In this document: positions 3,300-10,594 of the stretch, in pieces | How positions within the stretch are numbered: the first letter of the stretch is position 1 | How the letters are laid out: every line of letters starts with the position of its first letter | Virus genome (UHGV): UHGV-0104605 | From: a virus | Length of the DNA stretch: 10,891 nt | Reading direction: 5' to 3' (one strand) | Made by a program: the position numbers and the translations under genes | Notes under the pieces: model-generated | The model's input: the letters and a program-made list of their open reading frames with translations, nothing else | The model's database searches: none | Told to the model about the DNA's origin: nothing

Positions 3300-3399
3300 T
3301 CCTTAGATAACAATTGATTGAATGTATGCAAATAAATGCATACACCATAGGTGTGGTTTAATTTGATGCCCTTTTTCAGGGCTGGGATGTGTAAGAGCG
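3300..3399 (-). promoter_or_regulatory. nutR (boxA and boxB) and tR1 region between cro and cII
   Basis: On the minus strand, boxA CGCTCTTA (complement of 3392-3399) and boxB GCCCTGAAAAAGGGC (complement of 3368-3382) lie immediately after the cro stop. The following segment (aaaccacacctatggtgtatgcatttatttgcatacattcaatcaattg) matches the lambda tR1 region as I recall it. Confidence 0.8.
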
Positions 3400-3407
3400 G
3401 GAATGTC

Positions 3408-4760
<1,353 letters not shown>

Positions 4761-4921: not shown

Positions 4922-4952
4922 GGCTCTTAAAAATTAAGCCCTGAAGAAGGGC
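4922..4952 (+). promoter_or_regulatory. nutL (boxA-like element and boxB hairpin)
   Basis: ggctctta (4922-4929), a 7/8 match to boxA CGCTCTTA, followed by boxB gccctgaagaagggc (4938-4952). The flanking sequence matches lambda nutL as I recall it, with one possible substitution in boxA. Confidence 0.85.
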
Positions 4953-5220: not shown

Positions 5221-5547
5221 ATGGATGCACAAACACGCCGCCGCGAACGTCGCGCAGAGAAACAGGCTCAATGGAAAGCAGCAAATCCCCTGTTGGTTGG
5301 GGTAAGCGCAAAACCAGTTAACCGCCCTATTCTCTCGCTGAATCGCAAACCGAAATCACGAGTAGAAAGCGCACTGAATCCGATAGACCTTACGGTACTG
5401 GCTGAATACCACGAACAGATTGAAAGCAACCTGCAACGTATTGAGCGCAAGAATCAGCGCACATGGTACAGCAAGCCACGCAGTGAAATGGGGGTGACTT
5501 GTGTAGGTCGCCAGAAAATGAAATTAGGCAGCAAACCACTTATTTGA
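5221..5547 (+). CDS. N: Antitermination protein N, lambda type
   Basis: 108 aa. MDAQTRRRERRAEKQAQWKAANPLLVGVSAKPVNRPILSLNRKPKSRVESALNPIDLTVLAEYH matches lambda N including the Arg-rich boxB-binding motif; the C-terminal 25 aa or so differ at several positions. RBS AGGAGA 6 nt upstream. Preceded by a roughly 270-nt leader after nutL. Confidence 0.92.
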   Translation: MDAQTRRRERRAEKQAQWKAANPLLVGVSAKPVNRPILSLNRKPKSRVESALNPIDLTVLAEYHEQIESNLQRIERKNQRTWYSKPRSEMGVTCVGRQKMKLGSKPLI

Positions 5548-5555
5548 GGTGAGAT

Positions 5556-5642
5556 ATGGAAGAAGAATTTGAAGAGTTCGAAGAGCATCCGCAGGATGTG
5601 ATGGAACAATACCAGGACTATCCGTATGACTACGACTATTGA
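5556..5642 (+). CDS. Small acidic peptide (28 aa), possible lambda orf28 counterpart
   Basis: RBS GAGGTGAG then ATG 5556. Translates to MEEEFEEFEEHPQDVMEQYQDYPYDYDY. Overlaps the ral start by 17 nt. Below the ORF-track cut-off. Assignment rests on position and length only. Confidence 0.35.
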   Translation: MEEEFEEFEEHPQDVMEQYQDYPYDYDY

Positions 5643-5826
5643 TAAGAATCAATGGTGTGGACAATTCAAACGATGCAATGGATGCAAGCTGCAATCGGAA
5701 TGCATGGTTAAGCCTGAAGAAATGTTTCCTGTGATGGAAGATGGGAAATATGTCGATAAATGGGCAATACGAACGACGGCAATGATTGCCAGAGAAATTG
5801 GTAAACAGAACAACAAGGCTGCCTGA
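5626..5826 (+). CDS. ral: Restriction alleviation protein Ral (lambda-like)
   Basis: 66 aa, MTTTIDKNQWCGQFKRCNGCKLQSEC..., the expected size and position (downstream of N in the pL operon). The sequence matches my recollection of lambda Ral, with a CxxxxxCxxC cluster. Confidence 0.6.
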   Translation: MTTTIDKNQWCGQFKRCNGCKLQSECMVKPEEMFPVMEDGKYVDKWAIRTTAMIAREIGKQNNKAA

Positions 5827-5865
5827 TGGTGGCCTTTATTTTTGGCATAAACAACAGAGGCTAAC

Positions 5866-6162
5866 ATGGGATTTAAAGGTACTGAAGGTAAGTGGGAAAT
5901 AATGATGGATGGCGATGATATTAAAATCATCCAGGCAGACTCTCTTGAAAATGGCGCAGGCTGGCGTTCGTATATTGCAATCTGTGAGGAAGTTCAATGC
6001 ATTGAAGATGCCAATCTAATAGCGGCAGCACCTGACCTTCTCGAAGCACTTCAGTTATTACTTAAGCAATCCAAAAATAGAACAACGACAACATATCCAG
6101 AATGGTATGGAGCTGTTAATAAAGGTCTTGCAGCAATCAGCAAGGCTCTGGTAGGTGAGTGA
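5866..6162 (+). CDS. Hypothetical protein (98 aa), pL-operon accessory gene
   Basis: Track ORF with RBS AGAGG upstream of ATG 5866. Acidic N-terminal half. Occupies the position of ea10 or P22 gene 17 in related phages, but no sequence assignment is possible. Confidence 0.5.
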   Translation: MGFKGTEGKWEIMMDGDDIKIIQADSLENGAGWRSYIAICEEVQCIEDANLIAAAPDLLEALQLLLKQSKNRTTTTYPEWYGAVNKGLAAISKALVGE

Positions 6163-6362
6163 TGTGCGAGTTTTATGAAGCAGATATCAAACGCCCAGAA
6201 ATGGCAAGTGATGCGACATTACGTGATTACTTCGCGGCAAAGGCTATGCAAGCAATGATTAGCAATCCATCGATTATCGATAATGATTCTGATGGAGCTG
6301 TTAATTATGCAGCAAGCGCTGCATATAAGTTTGCAGACGCAATGCTCAAAGCTCGCGAATAA
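6159..6362 (+). CDS. Hypothetical protein (67 aa)
   Basis: Track ORF. The start (GTG 6159 or ATG 6162) overlaps the stop of the upstream gene. Ala-rich and acidic. Followed immediately by a hairpin. Confidence 0.45.
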   Translation: MMCEFYEADIKRPEMASDATLRDYFAAKAMQAMISNPSIIDNDSDGAVNYAASAAYKFADAMLKARE

Positions 6363-6457
6363 GCACTGTGTATTCATTCCAACGAGTGAATACACGGAGC
6401 AATGTCGCTCGTAACTAAACAGGAGCCGACTTGTTCTGATTATTGGAAATCTTCTTT

Positions 6458-6482
6458 GCCCTCCAATGTGAGGGCTTTTTTA
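6458..6482 (+). terminator. Rho-independent terminator within the pL operon (tL2/tL3-like)
   Basis: gccctc (6458-6463), loop caatgt, gagggc (6470-6475), then tttttt (6476-6481). Lies between the 67-aa gene and the cIII-like gene and would need N-mediated antitermination to be read through. Confidence 0.75.
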
Positions 6483-6547
6483 TATGCATACCAATAACGC
6501 TTCACTCGAGGCGTTTTCGTTATGCAATCAAACAGAAGGAGCATCCT

Positions 6548-6718
6548 ATGCAACAGTTCGCTATTGCAGGGGCGGCATCGGTTCGCCCTTTCAACCCGAT
6601 TTTATCGGTACAGCATTCACGAAAAAACATTTTAACCGGAGCAGACTTTAAACAACCAAGAATGAAAAGTTTGCTCGAAAAGCTTTGGGATATTTTGAAA
6701 CAACAAGGCCGTCCATGA
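6548..6718 (+). CDS. cIII-like small protein (56 aa), candidate FtsH inhibitor
   Basis: RBS AAGGAG then ATG 6548. MQQFAIAGAAS...KSLLEKLWDILKQQGRP resembles lambda cIII (MQYAIAG ... ESLLERITRKLRDGWKRLIDILNQPGVP, from memory) at both ends. The upstream part of track ORF 6443..6718 crosses the terminator and is discarded. Confidence 0.45.
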   Translation: MQQFAIAGAASVRPFNPILSVQHSRKNILTGADFKQPRMKSLLEKLWDILKQQGRP

Positions 6719-6822
6719 GTTTTACAGATAACTGGTCAGACGAAGAATTCATTCGTCAGATGAACAAAATGCTCAATCAGCACAAAGAACAGGAGAAAGA
6801 TGATGATTCTGACTCTGAATGA
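6715..6822 (+). CDS. Possible small ORF (35 aa, acidic C-terminus)
   Basis: ATG overlaps the cIII-like stop (ATGA). Translates to MSFTDNWSDEEFIRQMNKMLNQHKEQEKDDDSDSE. Overlaps the next gene by 23 nt. It could be a Kil-position peptide or spurious. Confidence 0.25.
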   Translation: MSFTDNWSDEEFIRQMNKMLNQHKEQEKDDDSDSE

Positions 6823-7111
6823 TAAGCGTGAAATATCGCAAATAATCGCAAGTTTTACTGATGAAGATTACGAGCGAATCAACAGTGAAGTTGATCGCCT
6901 CTGCAAACGTTGCGACCCAATAAGCGAAATGCTTCGCTCATATAAACCAGATGAACACACTAAGGACGCTATCGACTGGCTGGAAGATGATGACTGTAAC
7001 TATCAGGAAAAAGCCGCTGAATGGTTCTGGGATGCAATAACCGAAAGAGTTAAGGCTGAATATGCCTTCGCAATATTCAAACGCAGACACATTTTTGGAG
7101 AAGCTGCATGA
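6800..7111 (+). CDS. Hypothetical acidic protein (103 aa) translationally coupled to recT
   Basis: RBS AGGAG upstream of ATG 6800. The stop overlaps the RecT start (ATGA at 7108-7111). Acidic, with a DWLEDDDCNYQE segment. No recognisable nuclease motifs. Confidence 0.55.
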   Translation: MMILTLNDKREISQIIASFTDEDYERINSEVDRLCKRCDPISEMLRSYKPDEHTKDAIDWLEDDDCNYQEKAAEWFWDAITERVKAEYAFAIFKRRHIFGEAA

Positions 7112-8010
7112 GCAATATCGTTGAATTCGTTAAACAGCAGGAGCAGTTATTCTGCGGAGCATTGACTGAACAGACGGTGACATGGGCTAAGGAAAGCCAG
7201 TTTGCAATTCAGTATTTCCAGAAAAACGATTACCTGGCTAAAACAGCACTGGCAAATCCAACCAGCGCACAGAACGCCATCATCAATGTTGCGGCGATCG
7301 GCATCACCTTAAACCCGGCCAGCAAACTGGCTTATCTGGTTCCTCGCGACGGCATGGTGTGCCTTGATATCAGTTACATGGGATTACTTCATCTTGCGCA
7401 ATCGACAGGATCAATTAAGTGGGGGCAATGCAAACTGGTGTACTCAAACGACACCTATGAATCAAATGGCCTTGATTCAGCACCAACCCACAAATACAAC
7501 GCATTTGGTGAGCGAGGCTCTATTGTTGGAGGTTATTGCACGGTTAAAACAGCAGATGGTGACTACCTGACTGAAGAAATGAGTCTGGCAGAAATTAAAG
7601 CTGTGGAAGCAACGAGCAAGGCAAAGAATGGACCGTGGAAAACATTCTGGGAAGAGATGGCGCGTAAAACAATAGTTAAACGCGCCAGCAAATACTGGCC
7701 TAAAGCCCAGCGACTGGATAATGCCATTCACCTGCTTAACGAAGATGAAGGTATGCATCAGGAACCAGTTATGCCGCACAAATCAGAGGAAGATATCCGC
7801 GAAGATGAACGGAAACGCCAGCAGGAAATAATGGATAAAGCACAACTTCTTTGCGATGAAATGGCTCAGGCAGAAAACATGGATGATTTGAAGCGATATT
7901 TTGCAGAAGCATATCGCCTGACAGCTGGAATGAAATTGCAGCAGAACGTACAAGCCATTTACGCAGAATGCAAAGCGAAACTGGAGGTTGCCAGTGAGCA
8001 AACTGTATGA
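7108..8010 (+). CDS. recT: RecT-family single-strand annealing protein (recombinase)
   Basis: 300 aa. Segment NGPWKTFWEEMARKTIVKRASKYWP matches the conserved RecT core (Rac RecT NGPWVTHWEEMAKKTAIRRLFKYLP, from memory). RBS GGAGAAG upstream. Confidence 0.85.
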   Translation: MSNIVEFVKQQEQLFCGALTEQTVTWAKESQFAIQYFQKNDYLAKTALANPTSAQNAIINVAAIGITLNPASKLAYLVPRDGMVCLDISYMGLLHLAQSTGSIKWGQCKLVYSNDTYESNGLDSAPTHKYNAFGERGSIVGGYCTVKTADGDYLTEEMSLAEIKAVEATSKAKNGPWKTFWEEMARKTIVKRASKYWPKAQRLDNAIHLLNEDEGMHQEPVMPHKSEEDIREDERKRQQEIMDKAQLLCDEMAQAENMDDLKRYFAEAYRLTAGMKLQQNVQAIYAECKAKLEVASEQTV

Positions 8011-8476
8011 AATTGCCAATGAATACGCAAAATTGATGGATTCAGATTTAGAGCCAGAGATGATTGCTGACACAATAGAAGGCATGGAAGGAGAATTTAC
8101 CGATAAAATAGAGCAACTTCTTGCCATTATTAAAAATGAATCTGGTTATGCTGAACGCCTCAAGGACGAGGCAAAGTCACTGAATGAGCGAGCCGCAGTA
8201 ATTCAAAATAAGATTGACAGCATTATGGCGTATATAGCGTCATCGCTTGAAATGGTTGGCAAGAAAAAGATTCGAGCAGGTATTCACCAGGTAACAATCC
8301 GCAAACCATCAGAAACTGTAGAAATCATCGACTCAAGCGCCCTTCCTCCTGAATACGTTGAGTTTGAAACGACAATTAAAGCCGACAAACTGGCAATCAA
8401 ACACCAACTAAAAGCAGGAATAAATATCCCCGGCGCTCAACTCAAAGTTGGGAAACCTTCACTTCTTATCAAATAA
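7994..8476 (+). CDS. Mu Gam-like / Siphovirus Gp157-family protein (recombination-associated, host-nuclease inhibitor candidate)
   Basis: About 160 aa from GTG 7994 (GGAGG 6 nt upstream; the track gives TTG 7988). N-terminal coiled-coil-like region and a basic C-terminal domain (KKKIRAGIHQVTIRKPSETVEII). Overlaps the recT 3' end. Family assignment is from recollection of architecture and genomic context. Confidence 0.5.
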   Translation: MSKLYEIANEYAKLMDSDLEPEMIADTIEGMEGEFTDKIEQLLAIIKNESGYAERLKDEAKSLNERAAVIQNKIDSIMAYIASSLEMVGKKKIRAGIHQVTIRKPSETVEIIDSSALPPEYVEFETTIKADKLAIKHQLKAGINIPGAQLKVGKPSLLIK

Positions 8477-8818: not shown

Positions 8819-8983
8819 ATGAGAGGACTTGCATACAATCCCGGCATTCTTCCGGCAGAAATGATTATTCGCCAACGCGTAAAGCCAATGCCATCAAGAG
8901 AGGAATTGCTTAAGAGAAATTCTTTTCCATCAGTAAATCAAAACAAATATCTGAATGCAATGTGGCGGAGTGGGAAGAAATGA
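8819..8983 (+). CDS. Small hypothetical protein (54 aa)
   Basis: RBS AAGAGGAA then ATG 8819. The stop overlaps the next gene's ATG (ATGA at 8980-8983). Below the track cut-off. Confidence 0.4.
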
Positions 8984-9456
8984 AACAAATGACACTAATT
9001 GAGATGGATGGATTTCTGAAAGGTAAATGCATCCCAAGTGATTTAAAGGTTAACGAAACAAACGCTGAATATCTTGTCCGTAAGTTCGGTGAACTTGAAT
9101 CAAAACTGGAAACGGCGTTGCGGGAGTGTCGTTCTGCTGGAATCACGATTGATAACCTTGAGGCTAAATGCGCGAAGATGGCTGCTGAAAATACCTCACT
9201 TAAGCAATCTGAGAAGGAATTTAATGACTTTTGTCGTGAGGAGTTTAGCGAATGGGAAGATGATGTTACTGAAACCCCAGCCACCGACGCTTTCCTAGCT
9301 GAAGTTCGAGCGCAGGGCGTGGATATGGCTCGCAACGCGATGATTGATTTTTTTGATGGTGAAGTTGGGCCAAACAAGAACGTTCCGGGGCTGATTAGAG
9401 GCGCAGAGATATGCGTAAGTATTGCTGCCCAGCTTCGTAAAGGAGGCAACCAGTGA
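8980..9456 (+). CDS. Ead/Ea22-like modular protein, paralogue 1
   Basis: ATG 8980 (the track starts at GTG 8962). Shares segments with paralogue 2: [17 protein letters not shown] and a QLRKG C-terminus. Predicted coiled-coil N-terminal part. Confidence 0.6.
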
Positions 9457-10151
9457 GCGAAATTAACTATAAAGAACTGCGCGAGGCGGCGAAACAGGCA
9501 ACGCAAGATGAATGGGTAGCATATATTTTGCCGGGTCATAACGGCATTTATCCTGCGCGCACGTCTGAGGGTAGGCATTGCGGATACTTTATTGACTGGC
9601 CTGGCGTCTGTCAGGGGCGGGAGAGCATCAGCATGAGCATCAGAACCTACGCAGTGAATTGCAATGACGCATGGCTAAACACCGAAGGTGATGACATCTC
9701 CGGCTCATACGTTAAGTACAAAGACCATCAGGAAGTGGTTGCCGCTCTTGAGGCCAAGTGTGCGGCGCTGGCAGCGGAGAGTTCGGGGATGAAGAAGTTC
9801 TGCAAAGACGCTGCATTCGATGCCGATTACGAAGCAGAGCTAGGTATGGAGCGTGGTGGATTCAGTGATGCGCTTAACGAAATCAAAACCCCAGCCACCG
9901 ATGCTTTTCTAGCTGAAGTGAAGACTGAAGCACGCAAGGAAGGCGCTTATTTTGTGGCGAACAGAATGTTGGCAGCCTGGAAAGCTGGTTTTATTGATGA
10001 TACTGCGAAGAACGCCGCGGATATTGCCCGGATGATCCTTACCTCTACTGAGTTTATGGCTAATGCGCCGGAAGGCGATTTTGATCGCTCATTCTCTGAT
10101 GGCGTTCTCGAAGATATCGCCGAACAGCTTCGTAAAGGAGTCATCCAATGA
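9453..10151 (+). CDS. Ead/Ea22-like modular protein, paralogue 2
   Basis: GTG start overlapping the previous stop (GTGA), with AAAGGAGG upstream. N-terminus [15 protein letters not shown] parallels paralogue 3 (MSKIDYQKLREIAEK). Internal modules are shared with paralogue 1. Confidence 0.65.
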   Translation: MSEINYKELREAAKQATQDEWVAYILPGHNGIYPARTSEGRHCGYFIDWPGVCQGRESISMSIRTYAVNCNDAWLNTEGDDISGSYVKYKDHQEVVAALEAKCAALAAESSGMKKFCKDAAFDADYEAELGMERGGFSDALNEIKTPATDAFLAEVKTEARKEGAYFVANRMLAAWKAGFIDDTAKNAADIARMILTSTEFMANAPEGDFDRSFSDGVLEDIAEQLRKGVIQ

Positions 10152-10594
10152 GCAAGATTGATTATCAAAAGCTTCGTGAAATCGCTGAAAAAACAAAAAT
10201 TGCTGGTGAAGCACCTGTAATGCCTTTCGATCAGCGAATTAATGCGCTTAACGATTTTATGAAGCACTTTTCGCCAGATATCGCGCTGGCATTGTTGGAT
10301 GAATGGGAAAGAAACCAGCAATACATAAAACGCCGCGATCAGGAGAACGAGGATATTGCGCTAACGGTAGGGAAGCTGCGCGTTGAGCTTGAGGCAGAAA
10401 AACAGCGGGCAAAGGATCTATTTATGGAAAATGCCCGGCTTAAGTCAGGTATAGCCCGTCTGATACACCTCGGTATTCGATATGCAGATGTTGAGGTCAT
10501 GAGAATTGCTGGAGATGCCCAGCTTTCTACCCCATGCACTGACAGCATCATAAACAGCATTGCAACAGGCATTCGCATCAAAGGAGGTGAGTAA
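10148..10594 (+). CDS. Ead/Ea22-like modular protein, paralogue 3
   Basis: ATG overlaps the previous stop (ATGA), with AAAGGAG upstream. Shares the N-terminal module with paralogue 2. Coiled-coil-like middle (ELEAEKQRAKDLFMENARLK). Confidence 0.6.
   Translation: MSKIDYQKLREIAEKTKIAGEAPVMPFDQRINALNDFMKHFSPDIALALLDEWERNQQYIKRRDQENEDIALTVGKLRVELEAEKQRAKDLFMENARLKSGIARLIHLGIRYADVEVMRIAGDAQLSTPCTDSIINSIATGIRIKGGE

Follow-up and report, generated by a model that had tools for sequence, protein, structure and literature searches.

A candidate Gam-equivalent among five small genes between ral and recT in the lambdoid virus genome UHGV-0104605

UHGV virus genome UHGV-0104605 was analysed as a stretch of 10,891 nucleotides (nt), hereafter the window, in which five small open reading frames (ORFs) lie between ral and recT at positions 5866-7111. 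Our analysis points to the last of these, ORF5, as a Gam-like RecBCD inhibitor, the Gam-equivalent of its recombination module and a third sequence type beside Gam and GamL, a reading to which we give a probability of about 60%. The position of ORF5, its one-for-one displacement of Gam and GamL, its predicted fold, its size, its charge and a weak sequence signal all agree with this assignment, which has apparently not been reported. Small, acidic and predicted to be helical with the fold of lambda Gam, ORF5 would bind RecBCD as a DNA-end mimic, like Gam and GamL, and this binding would protect linear phage DNA and let the phage RecT take over recombination. Here we infer RecBCD as the target, dimerisation of ORF5 and the DNA-mimic mechanism. 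An earlier reading made from the DNA letters (the sequence-only reading) had treated the block as one set of equivalent unknowns. That picture has to be replaced: the block is a mosaic in which an accessory cassette is followed by a conserved leader with terminators, by cIII and, last, by the 5' end of a recombination module (ORF4-ORF5). The five ORFs, with sizes in amino acids (aa), are as follows.

5866-6162, + strand: ORF1, 98 aa.
6159 (GTG)-6362, + strand: ORF2, 67 aa; the PGAP start is the ATG at 6162, giving 66 aa.
6548-6718, + strand: cIII-like gene, 56 aa.
6715-6822, + strand: ORF4, 35 aa from the ATG; 45 aa from the TTG at 6685.
6800-7111, + strand: ORF5, 103 aa; PGAP gives 6803-7111, 102 aa.

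All five were found between ral and recT on the + strand, where the sequence-only reading had placed them, and the overlapping stops and starts that it described are present at four junctions. ORF1 and ORF2 overlap through TGATG, cIII and ORF4 through ATGA, ORF4 and ORF5 by 20-23 nt, and ORF5 and recT again through ATGA. Good Shine-Dalgarno sequences precede ORF1 (AGAGG), cIII (AAGGAG), ORF5 (AGGAGA) and recT (GGAGAA); the exception to the decent ribosome-binding sites that had been noted is ORF4, with a weak AAGG. The number of contigs with the exact protein ranges from about 200 to over 1000 across the five, and homologues were recovered down to 54% identity for ORF1, 43% for ORF2, 47% for the cIII variant, about 40% for ORF4 and 34% for ORF5. 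Because each occurs on hundreds of contigs and has diverged homologues, the five ORFs are real conserved genes and not products of chance. RefSeq/PGAP records four of them as 'hypothetical protein' and leaves ORF4 uncalled, none of the annotation sources checked gives a functional name for any of the five proteins, and sequence and profile searches with the five ORFs against Pfam, NCBIfam, PADLOC and the PDB yielded nothing useful. The description of the ORFs other than the cIII-like gene as unrecognised therefore stands as far as functional names go, but it does not hold for ORF1, which has a family (PF27050, uncharacterised).

ORF5 is an acidic protein (pI 4.65) of 102 aa, or 103 aa from 6800, and is modelled as all-helical. 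Its family is small, with 65 proteins found by a profile search of 5.8 billion proteins and 67 clusters in an exhaustive search of representatives; the members are all about 100 aa long and all named sources are enterobacterial. No annotated domain was reached through the 67 representative clusters. The location of ORF5 in the gam slot was first predicted from gene order alone. ORF5 homologues (34-100% identity) adjoin the first gene of the recombination module in every locus examined, and these modules are of four types: RecT with Gp157; RecT with a YqaJ exonuclease; an unknown 167-aa protein with YqaJ; and a RecE-like DUF3799 nuclease with a 198-aa protein. Pfam matches to Gam or Abc2 are not on record in the nine metagenomic ORF5 loci, and neither is annotated in the three phage records.

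A further line of argument comes from modules in which the slot is filled differently. Gene DISPLACEMENT of ORF5 is seen in phage Dewey, where a true Gam (63% identical to lambda Gam) lies directly upstream of a RecT and a Gp157 that are 85% and 95% identical, respectively, to those of the window. Louie, the sister phage of Dewey, carries ORF4 and ORF5 at the position of Dewey's Gam. Since the Dewey module holds both a true Gam and Gp157, a single module can accommodate both a Gam-type gene and Gp157. The RecT and Exo of Cronobacter phage ENT47670 are 81% and 86% identical to those of phi80, but an ORF5 homologue stands where phi80 has gamL. Among 79 IMG/VR contigs with a phi80-type RecT, the ORF adjoining recT was GamL in 56, a lambda-type Gam in 12, a member of the ORF5 family in 10 and none in one; not one of the 79 had two of them. 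Occupancy of the slot by ORF5 is thus mutually exclusive with Gam and GamL.

The fold predicted for ORF5 matches the Gam fold (helical, about 100 aa), and the proteins measure 102 aa (ORF5), 98 aa (GamS) and 93 aa (GamL). Gam is a dimeric DNA mimic whose long N-terminal helix enters the RecB channel, and it reduces the ciprofloxacin MIC by about four-fold (PMC5218532). Compared with lambda Gam (GamS; PF06064; PDB 2UUZ, 5MBV), ORF5 shows an overall identity of about 16-20% and no Pfam or standard profile match, and unlike lambda Gam it has no long isoform with an N-terminal extension. Like phi80 GamL (PHROG 1050, 'gam-like host nuclease inhibitor'), the ORF5 homologue of ENT47670 lies upstream of an orthologous RecT-Exo pair, and ORF5 is of similar size; GamL is itself said to be a second sequence type with the Gam fold (PMC12315714). 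ORF5 differs from GamL in having no detectable sequence similarity to it (hhalign <1%, hidden Markov model (HMM) scores of about 0-3 bits), and the 322-aa modifier (agt/mog) with which phi80 GamL is paired has no counterpart beside ORF5 here. P22 Abc2 and Mu Gam/Sipho_Gp157 are other anti-RecBCD solutions in lambdoid modules, Gp157 being present in the window's own module. Abc2, which binds RecC, and Mu Gam, which binds DNA ends, are unlike ORF5: they have unrelated folds and mechanisms, and their genes lie downstream of the annealase gene.

The sequence signal that links ORF5 to Gam is weak but colinear with the structural match. Only when a more diverse Gam profile was used, built from eight sequences of species-representative genomes that are not mutually independent, did hhalign give a signal, aligning ORF5 residues 36-75 with GamS residues 37-80 at E 4e-4 and a probability of 34%. 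BLASTP of Dewey Gam against ORF5 gave 48% identity over 23 aa around DDDxx[YF]QE[KR]xAE (pairwise E 1e-4). The Gam HMM scored ORF5 at 11.2 bits, compared to -0.3 to 5.9 bits for other small early-left proteins, and in the opposite direction the ORF5 HMM scored Gam sequences at 6.7-14.8 bits. As a control, 2000 composition-matched shuffles were scored; their median was 1.3 bits, the 99th percentile 7.4, the 99.9th percentile 10.2 and the maximum 13.0.

Several results weigh against a Gam-like ORF5. Calibrated on the shuffles, the HMM scores correspond to p of about 0.0005-0.017 per sequence and not to the nominal HMMER values of 1e-5 to 1e-6. Gp157, which sits in the same module as ORF5, has been counted as an anti-RecBCD function (PMC12315714), yet Dewey has both Gam and Gp157. 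A Pfam scan of 42 ORF5 family members at E <= 10 gave no link to Gam, NCBIfam and PDB sequence and profile searches with ORF5 found nothing, and when the ORF5 profile was aligned by hhalign with individual Gam or GamL sequences, or with sets of near-identical Gam sequences, the probabilities were about 1%. Foldseek against the BFVD viral models returned no Gam and only one probable member of the ORF5 family. The N-terminal region of ORF5 is modelled as two helices (5-16 and 20-34), not as the one long helix that Gam inserts into the RecB channel. Position is also shared with a gene of another kind: P22 arf, an accessory recombination gene of unknown mechanism, likewise lies directly upstream of its annealase gene.

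The likeness in position to arf raises the possibility, which we regard as unlikely though deserving attention, that ORF5 is an accessory recombination factor like P22 Arf/Abc1 that aids or regulates the annealase or nuclease and does not inhibit RecBCD. ORF5 stands at the position of the arf-like HK97 gp42/gp42.1 and HK75 gp33, directly upstream of erf; the first 50 nt of the adjacent ORF4 are common to HK97 gp42.1 and HK75 gp33; and the start/stop overlap couples translation of ORF5 to that of the first recombination gene. A partner-specific cofactor would not be expected beside at least four unrelated first genes (RecT, the DUF3799 nuclease, unknown 167-aa proteins), however, and the mutual exclusion seen for ORF5 involves Gam and GamL rather than arf. 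The predicted fold match is to Gam, and HMMs show no relation of ORF5 to arf-like proteins. It is somewhat more doubtful that ORF5 is a DNA-mimic or helical inhibitor of some other host target (SbcCD, a restriction enzyme or another defence nuclease) that resembles Gam only in its small helical architecture. The acidic, small and helical character of ORF5 would suit such a role, as would the weakness of its similarity to Gam and its place in an early-left operon rich in genes for host takeover (Ral and cIII, for example); the annotation of phi80 GamL describes it as inhibiting RecBCD and SbcCD alike. The one-for-one replacement of Gam and GamL in otherwise orthologous modules points instead to the same job, and ORF5 is tied strictly to recombination modules and not to the variable accessory slots in which ORF1 and ORF2 are found.

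ORF4, which precedes ORF5, is an acidic micro-ORF of 35 aa whose 3' part runs over the ribosome-binding site of ORF5 and into its start. HK75 gp33 and HK97 gp42.1 begin with the same 50 nt as ORF4 (6715-6764); directly upstream there is no identity and downstream the sequences diverge, a pattern that reads as a typical mosaic junction. Like P22 Arf, HK97 gp42.1 and HK75 Gp33, ORF4 occupies a site upstream of the annealase, and its first 17 codons are common to gp42.1 and Gp33. Unlike the proteins of PHROG 2123, it has an unrelated tail, and ORF5 has no similarity to them either. The match of ORF4 to PHROG 2123 covers profile positions 1-20 of 52 only (HK75 gp33 itself matches at 4e-40), and ORF4 is, as judged from this alignment, not a full-length Arf-like/HK75 Gp33 member. 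HK75 Gp33 has been reported to be sufficient to trigger the abortive-infection system P2 OLD and was proposed to be a RecBCD inhibitor or manipulator (2026 preprint, bioRxiv 10.64898/2026.07.10.737580). For ORF4 the link to HK75 Gp33 is a lead and not an assignment.

Some of the small ORFs, chiefly ORF4, might not be functional proteins at all, ORF4 being either a by-product of the mosaic junction or a leader translated only to couple ribosomes from cIII/kil into ORF5. The first 50 nt form a discrete block identical in HK75 and HK97 while the tails differ between phages, the Shine-Dalgarno sequence is weak, PGAP makes no call, the ORF overlaps the ribosome-binding site and start of ORF5, and it is missing from the ORF5 loci L016, L017, L288, L290 and L292. 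We nonetheless hold this to be quite improbable. ORFs of 33-39 aa with the core W-S/T-D/E-D/E-x-F-x-R-x-M precede the ORF5 homologues in 7 of 10 diverged IMG/VR loci at about 40% identity, which implies selection on the peptide, and HK75 Gp33, with the same N-terminus, has a reported phenotype in the triggering of P2 OLD (bioRxiv 10.64898/2026.07.10.737580). A more speculative proposal, which we consider unlikely on present evidence, is that ORF4 and ORF5 are a two-part RecBCD-manipulating device. ORF5 would then be a third, sequence-unrecognisable lineage of Gam-fold DNA mimics, and the ORF4 core WSDEEFIRQM would be the active part common to HK75 Gp33.

A few further observations concern ORF5, Gam and GamL. 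The ORF5 family nearly always ends in [E/D]-A-A, and in the window the codons at 7094-7111 (GGAGAAGCTGCATGA) also form the Shine-Dalgarno sequence and start of recT; the C-terminal constraint may lie at the DNA level, or else the terminal Ala-Ala may mark the protein for degradation. HMMs of lambda Gam and phi80 GamL cross-match the same ORFs (L215-L294) at E of about 1e-6 through an N-terminal MNAY..DRxE..W, so that these two 'very different' types are detectably homologous, with ORF5 much further off. The arf-like HK97 gp42 and Sf6 gp29 end in PCPF and GamL ends in ICPF, but the relation that this suggested was rejected, the HMM scores being about 0. Lambda gam at 97-100% identity was also found on short contigs assigned to Pseudoxanthomonas, Enterococcus, Shewanella, Chromatium, Kitasatospora and Paenibacillus (L188-L205), and on contigs of such unrelated taxa it is almost certainly contamination with lambda DNA. 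The phi80 'modifier of Gam' agt/mog (L015:9844-10812) and the Sf6 gene 33 type (L009:1243-2211; Sf6, Sf101, mEp043, Louie) all encode proteins of 322 aa and stand just before cIII or gam; the window has no such gene. The annotation of Sf6 gene 33 notes a similarity to D3 Orf53, a protein linked to Gabija sensitivity in a preprint (PMC12407980).

The identification of the 56-aa ORF as cIII-like was borne out by a match to PHROG 550 over its full length (1e-22), while Pfam Lambda_CIII gave no match to it at E <= 0.1. The protein is a long 56-aa variant and basic (pI 11). Its ends, MQQFAIAG and LLEKLWDILKQQGRP, align with lambda cIII; its middle differs and is about 11-15 residues longer. The central amphipathic helix of lambda cIII, at residues of about 14-37, is needed for inhibition of FtsH. 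The window gene resembles lambda cIII (PF02061, PHROG 550) in its N-terminal MQxAIAG and C-terminal LxxILxQxGxP, in its place after a tL2-type terminator and in its strong ribosome-binding site. It is unlike lambda cIII in its length of 56 aa, in the other, longer middle where lambda has the amphipathic helix and in the lack of a kil gene after it. Homology would make the protein an inhibitor of FtsH and so a stabiliser of cII. Metagenomic prophages (L016) contain a 47%-identical homologue of the long type, whereas sister prophages carry a short 44-aa cIII with an overlapping kil where the window has the long variant. Pfam Lambda_Kil matched none of the five ORFs, and there is no Kil at this position in the window. 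The suggestion that any of the ORFs could inhibit a host nuclease, protease or division function fares unevenly: the nuclease guess fits ORF5, but none of the ORFs is Kil-like.

Upstream of cIII the mosaic is resolved by comparison with HK140, which has 9 bp where the window has 504 bp (5859-6362), so that its ral runs nearly straight into the cIII leader. Over the next 185 bp (6363-6547) the window and HK140 are 98.9% identical. With the flanks conserved in this way, ORF1 and ORF2 form an inserted accessory cassette, and this exchangeable cassette occupies a hypervariable slot directly 3' of ral.

5859-6362, + strand: accessory cassette of 504 bp with ORF1 and ORF2, defined by the HK140 comparison.
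6363-6547, + strand: structured leader 5' of cIII with four hairpins, defined by RNA folding against shuffles and by phage annotations.

ORF1 and ORF2 are not an obligate pair. Sf101 has an identical ORF2 behind a different protein of the Y8K6 family, and mEp043, SI8 and ST104 have unrelated small genes after ORF1-type genes. When positions 5800-7200 were compared with 5426 complete E. coli genomes, 2286 matched some part but only 20 matched at least 80%, and the gene combination of the window is accordingly rare.

ORF1 is acidic (98 aa, pI 4.55). Its homologues, at 54-97% identity, carry precomputed matches to PF27050 (Phage_P22_Y8K6), and on the strength of these homologues and of conserved motifs we place ORF1 in this family, among whose members are P22 orf78 and ST104 orf18. 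The family alignment keeps FKGTxGxW, AAPDLLEALQ and AAISKALGEE, with swapped N-terminal domains and a hypervariable middle. Like the Y8K6 genes of P22, ST104 and Sf101, ORF1 lies in the slot between ral and the cIII leader. The N-terminal domain and central segment of the Y8K6/orf78 family (PF27050) vary between members, all of which are uncharacterised, and a literature search on PF27050, Y8K6 and P22 orf78 found nothing relevant. Members occur at differing places in early-left operons, the Dewey copy (L186:3319-3561) overlapping the start of gam. With their fixed ends and hypervariable middle, Y8K6 proteins could be target-specific anti-defence binders. The AAPDLLEAL motif might have tied ORF1 to the N-termini of the Ead/Ea22 proteins, whose genes lie further downstream in the window, but an hhalign probability of 0.1% led us to reject this relation.

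ORF2 is also acidic and is identical to Sf101 gp33. It matches PHROGs 2201, 37111, 20565 and 30599, which are of unknown function, and one more that is labelled only transcriptional regulator. The core of its family consists of LRDYFAAKAMQAMI, a variable stretch and AYxFADAMLKAR. Relatives in IMG/VR (loci L295-L374) are 58-99 aa long, with a few longer frames, and have the core GMTLRDYFAAKAMQAMI, a variable stretch and AYxFADAMLxAR; an N-terminal GGPAFP is typical of them, and the N-terminus of the window's ORF2 differs in lacking this motif. No informative fusion or domain was found among the IMG/VR relatives. The family is common in metagenomic viral contigs and is variable in the centre, between two conserved helices. 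For both ORF1 and ORF2 it is position alone that would suggest an anti-defence role.

The leader between the cassette and cIII is near-identical in HK97, HK140 and Sf6. Its RNA (6355-6560) folds far better than shuffled sequence (z = -6.1) and forms tandem terminator-like elements; its hairpins include an intrinsic terminator (6458-6475), which runs into a U stretch, and a second one at 6496-6515. Phage records mark this sequence as a terminator (mEpX1, HK97) or as tL2A (Sf6). Another terminator-like hairpin (5815-5836), with a T run, overlaps the stop codon of ral. N-modified polymerase would be expected to read through these terminators. An Rfam search of the window, the cIII leader included, found no family.

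The whole window matches, at 100% identity, a prophage carried in the E. coli EH01-18-04-A chromosome, and segments of the tested stretch show 90-98% identity to such lambdoid phages as HK140, mEpX1, E212, Gally and Louie. The order on the + strand is cI, a small gene at the rex position, nutL, N, Ral, the five ORFs, RecT and Sipho_Gp157.

3727-4359, + strand: cI.
4938-4952, + strand: nutL boxB; its sequence is that of lambda, GCCCTGAAGAAGGGC, and a boxA-like GCTCTTA stands before it.
5221-5547, + strand: antiterminator N (Pfam N36, 1.5e-26; PGAP annotation).
5626-5826, + strand: Ral, restriction alleviation (Pfam Ral, 7e-48).
7108-8010, + strand: RecT, single-strand annealing protein (Pfam RecT, 2.6e-33; 57% identity to phi80 RecT).
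7988-8476, + strand: Sipho_Gp157 protein (Pfam, 1.5e-36; PHROG 253).

The proposal that the block belongs to an N-dependent pL operon is correct, given the Pfam matches of N, Ral and RecT and the lambda-identical nutL boxB. By chance, 0 matches to the lambda boxB are expected, and nutL marks an N-antiterminated pL transcript that bears the five-ORF block. Downstream of cro, the minus strand carries a nutR-type boxB (GCCCTGAAAAAGGGC) at 3368-3382, mirroring nutL and confirming lambda-type N specificity. Sipho_Gp157 carries the label 'Mu Gam-like end protection' in PHROGs and in Zheng et al. 2025 (PMC12315714). The window contains no Chi sites, which is uninformative given that about 0.3 would be expected by chance.

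Just 3' of cI, at the position of lambda rexAB, the gene at 4449-4760 (+ strand; a longer ORF begins at 4284) belongs to PHROG 2651 (function unknown) and has an N-terminus resembling a signal peptide; its role may be in exclusion or conversion, with expression from the prophage. Three successive Ead/Ea22-like genes (164, 232 and 148 aa) with overlapping stops and starts lie at 8962-10594 on the + strand, the first two sharing internal motifs and a QLRKG end. The homologue P0022 is a chimera of an ORF5 N-terminal half and an Ea22-like C-terminal half. In E. coli TST3 and TBE6 an IS5-like ISKpn26 element interrupts the homologous block.

RecBCD is a hub of phage-host conflict: it is inhibited by Gam, GamL, Abc2 and gp5.9, and its inhibition is sensed by retrons Ec48 and Se72, P2 OLD and Gabija. 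In a recent census covering 246 lambdoid recombination modules, four anti-RecBCD types were distinguished (Gam, GamL, Abc2 and MuGam) and 43 modules were scored as having none; HK140, which bears an ORF5 homologue, is listed there with MuGam (Gp157) only (PMC12315714). The exact ORF5 protein is present on at least 1000 E. coli contigs, and its family fills about 13% of phi80-type RecT modules. The remainder of the block is ordinary lambdoid mosaicism, of value as a defined list of small, widespread, uncharacterised early genes. If ORF4 and ORF5 did act as a two-part device, this would account for part of the lambdoid recombination modules that are at present scored as having no anti-RecBCD gene and would supply a natural trigger or evasion determinant for OLD and for retrons Ec48 and Se72. 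If ORF5 is Gam-type, it would be a fifth anti-RecBCD type, or a third Gam-fold lineage, and would fill part of the gap in the census. It would also predict which prophages should trigger defences that guard RecBCD, and it would provide an alternative RecBCD blocker for recombineering.

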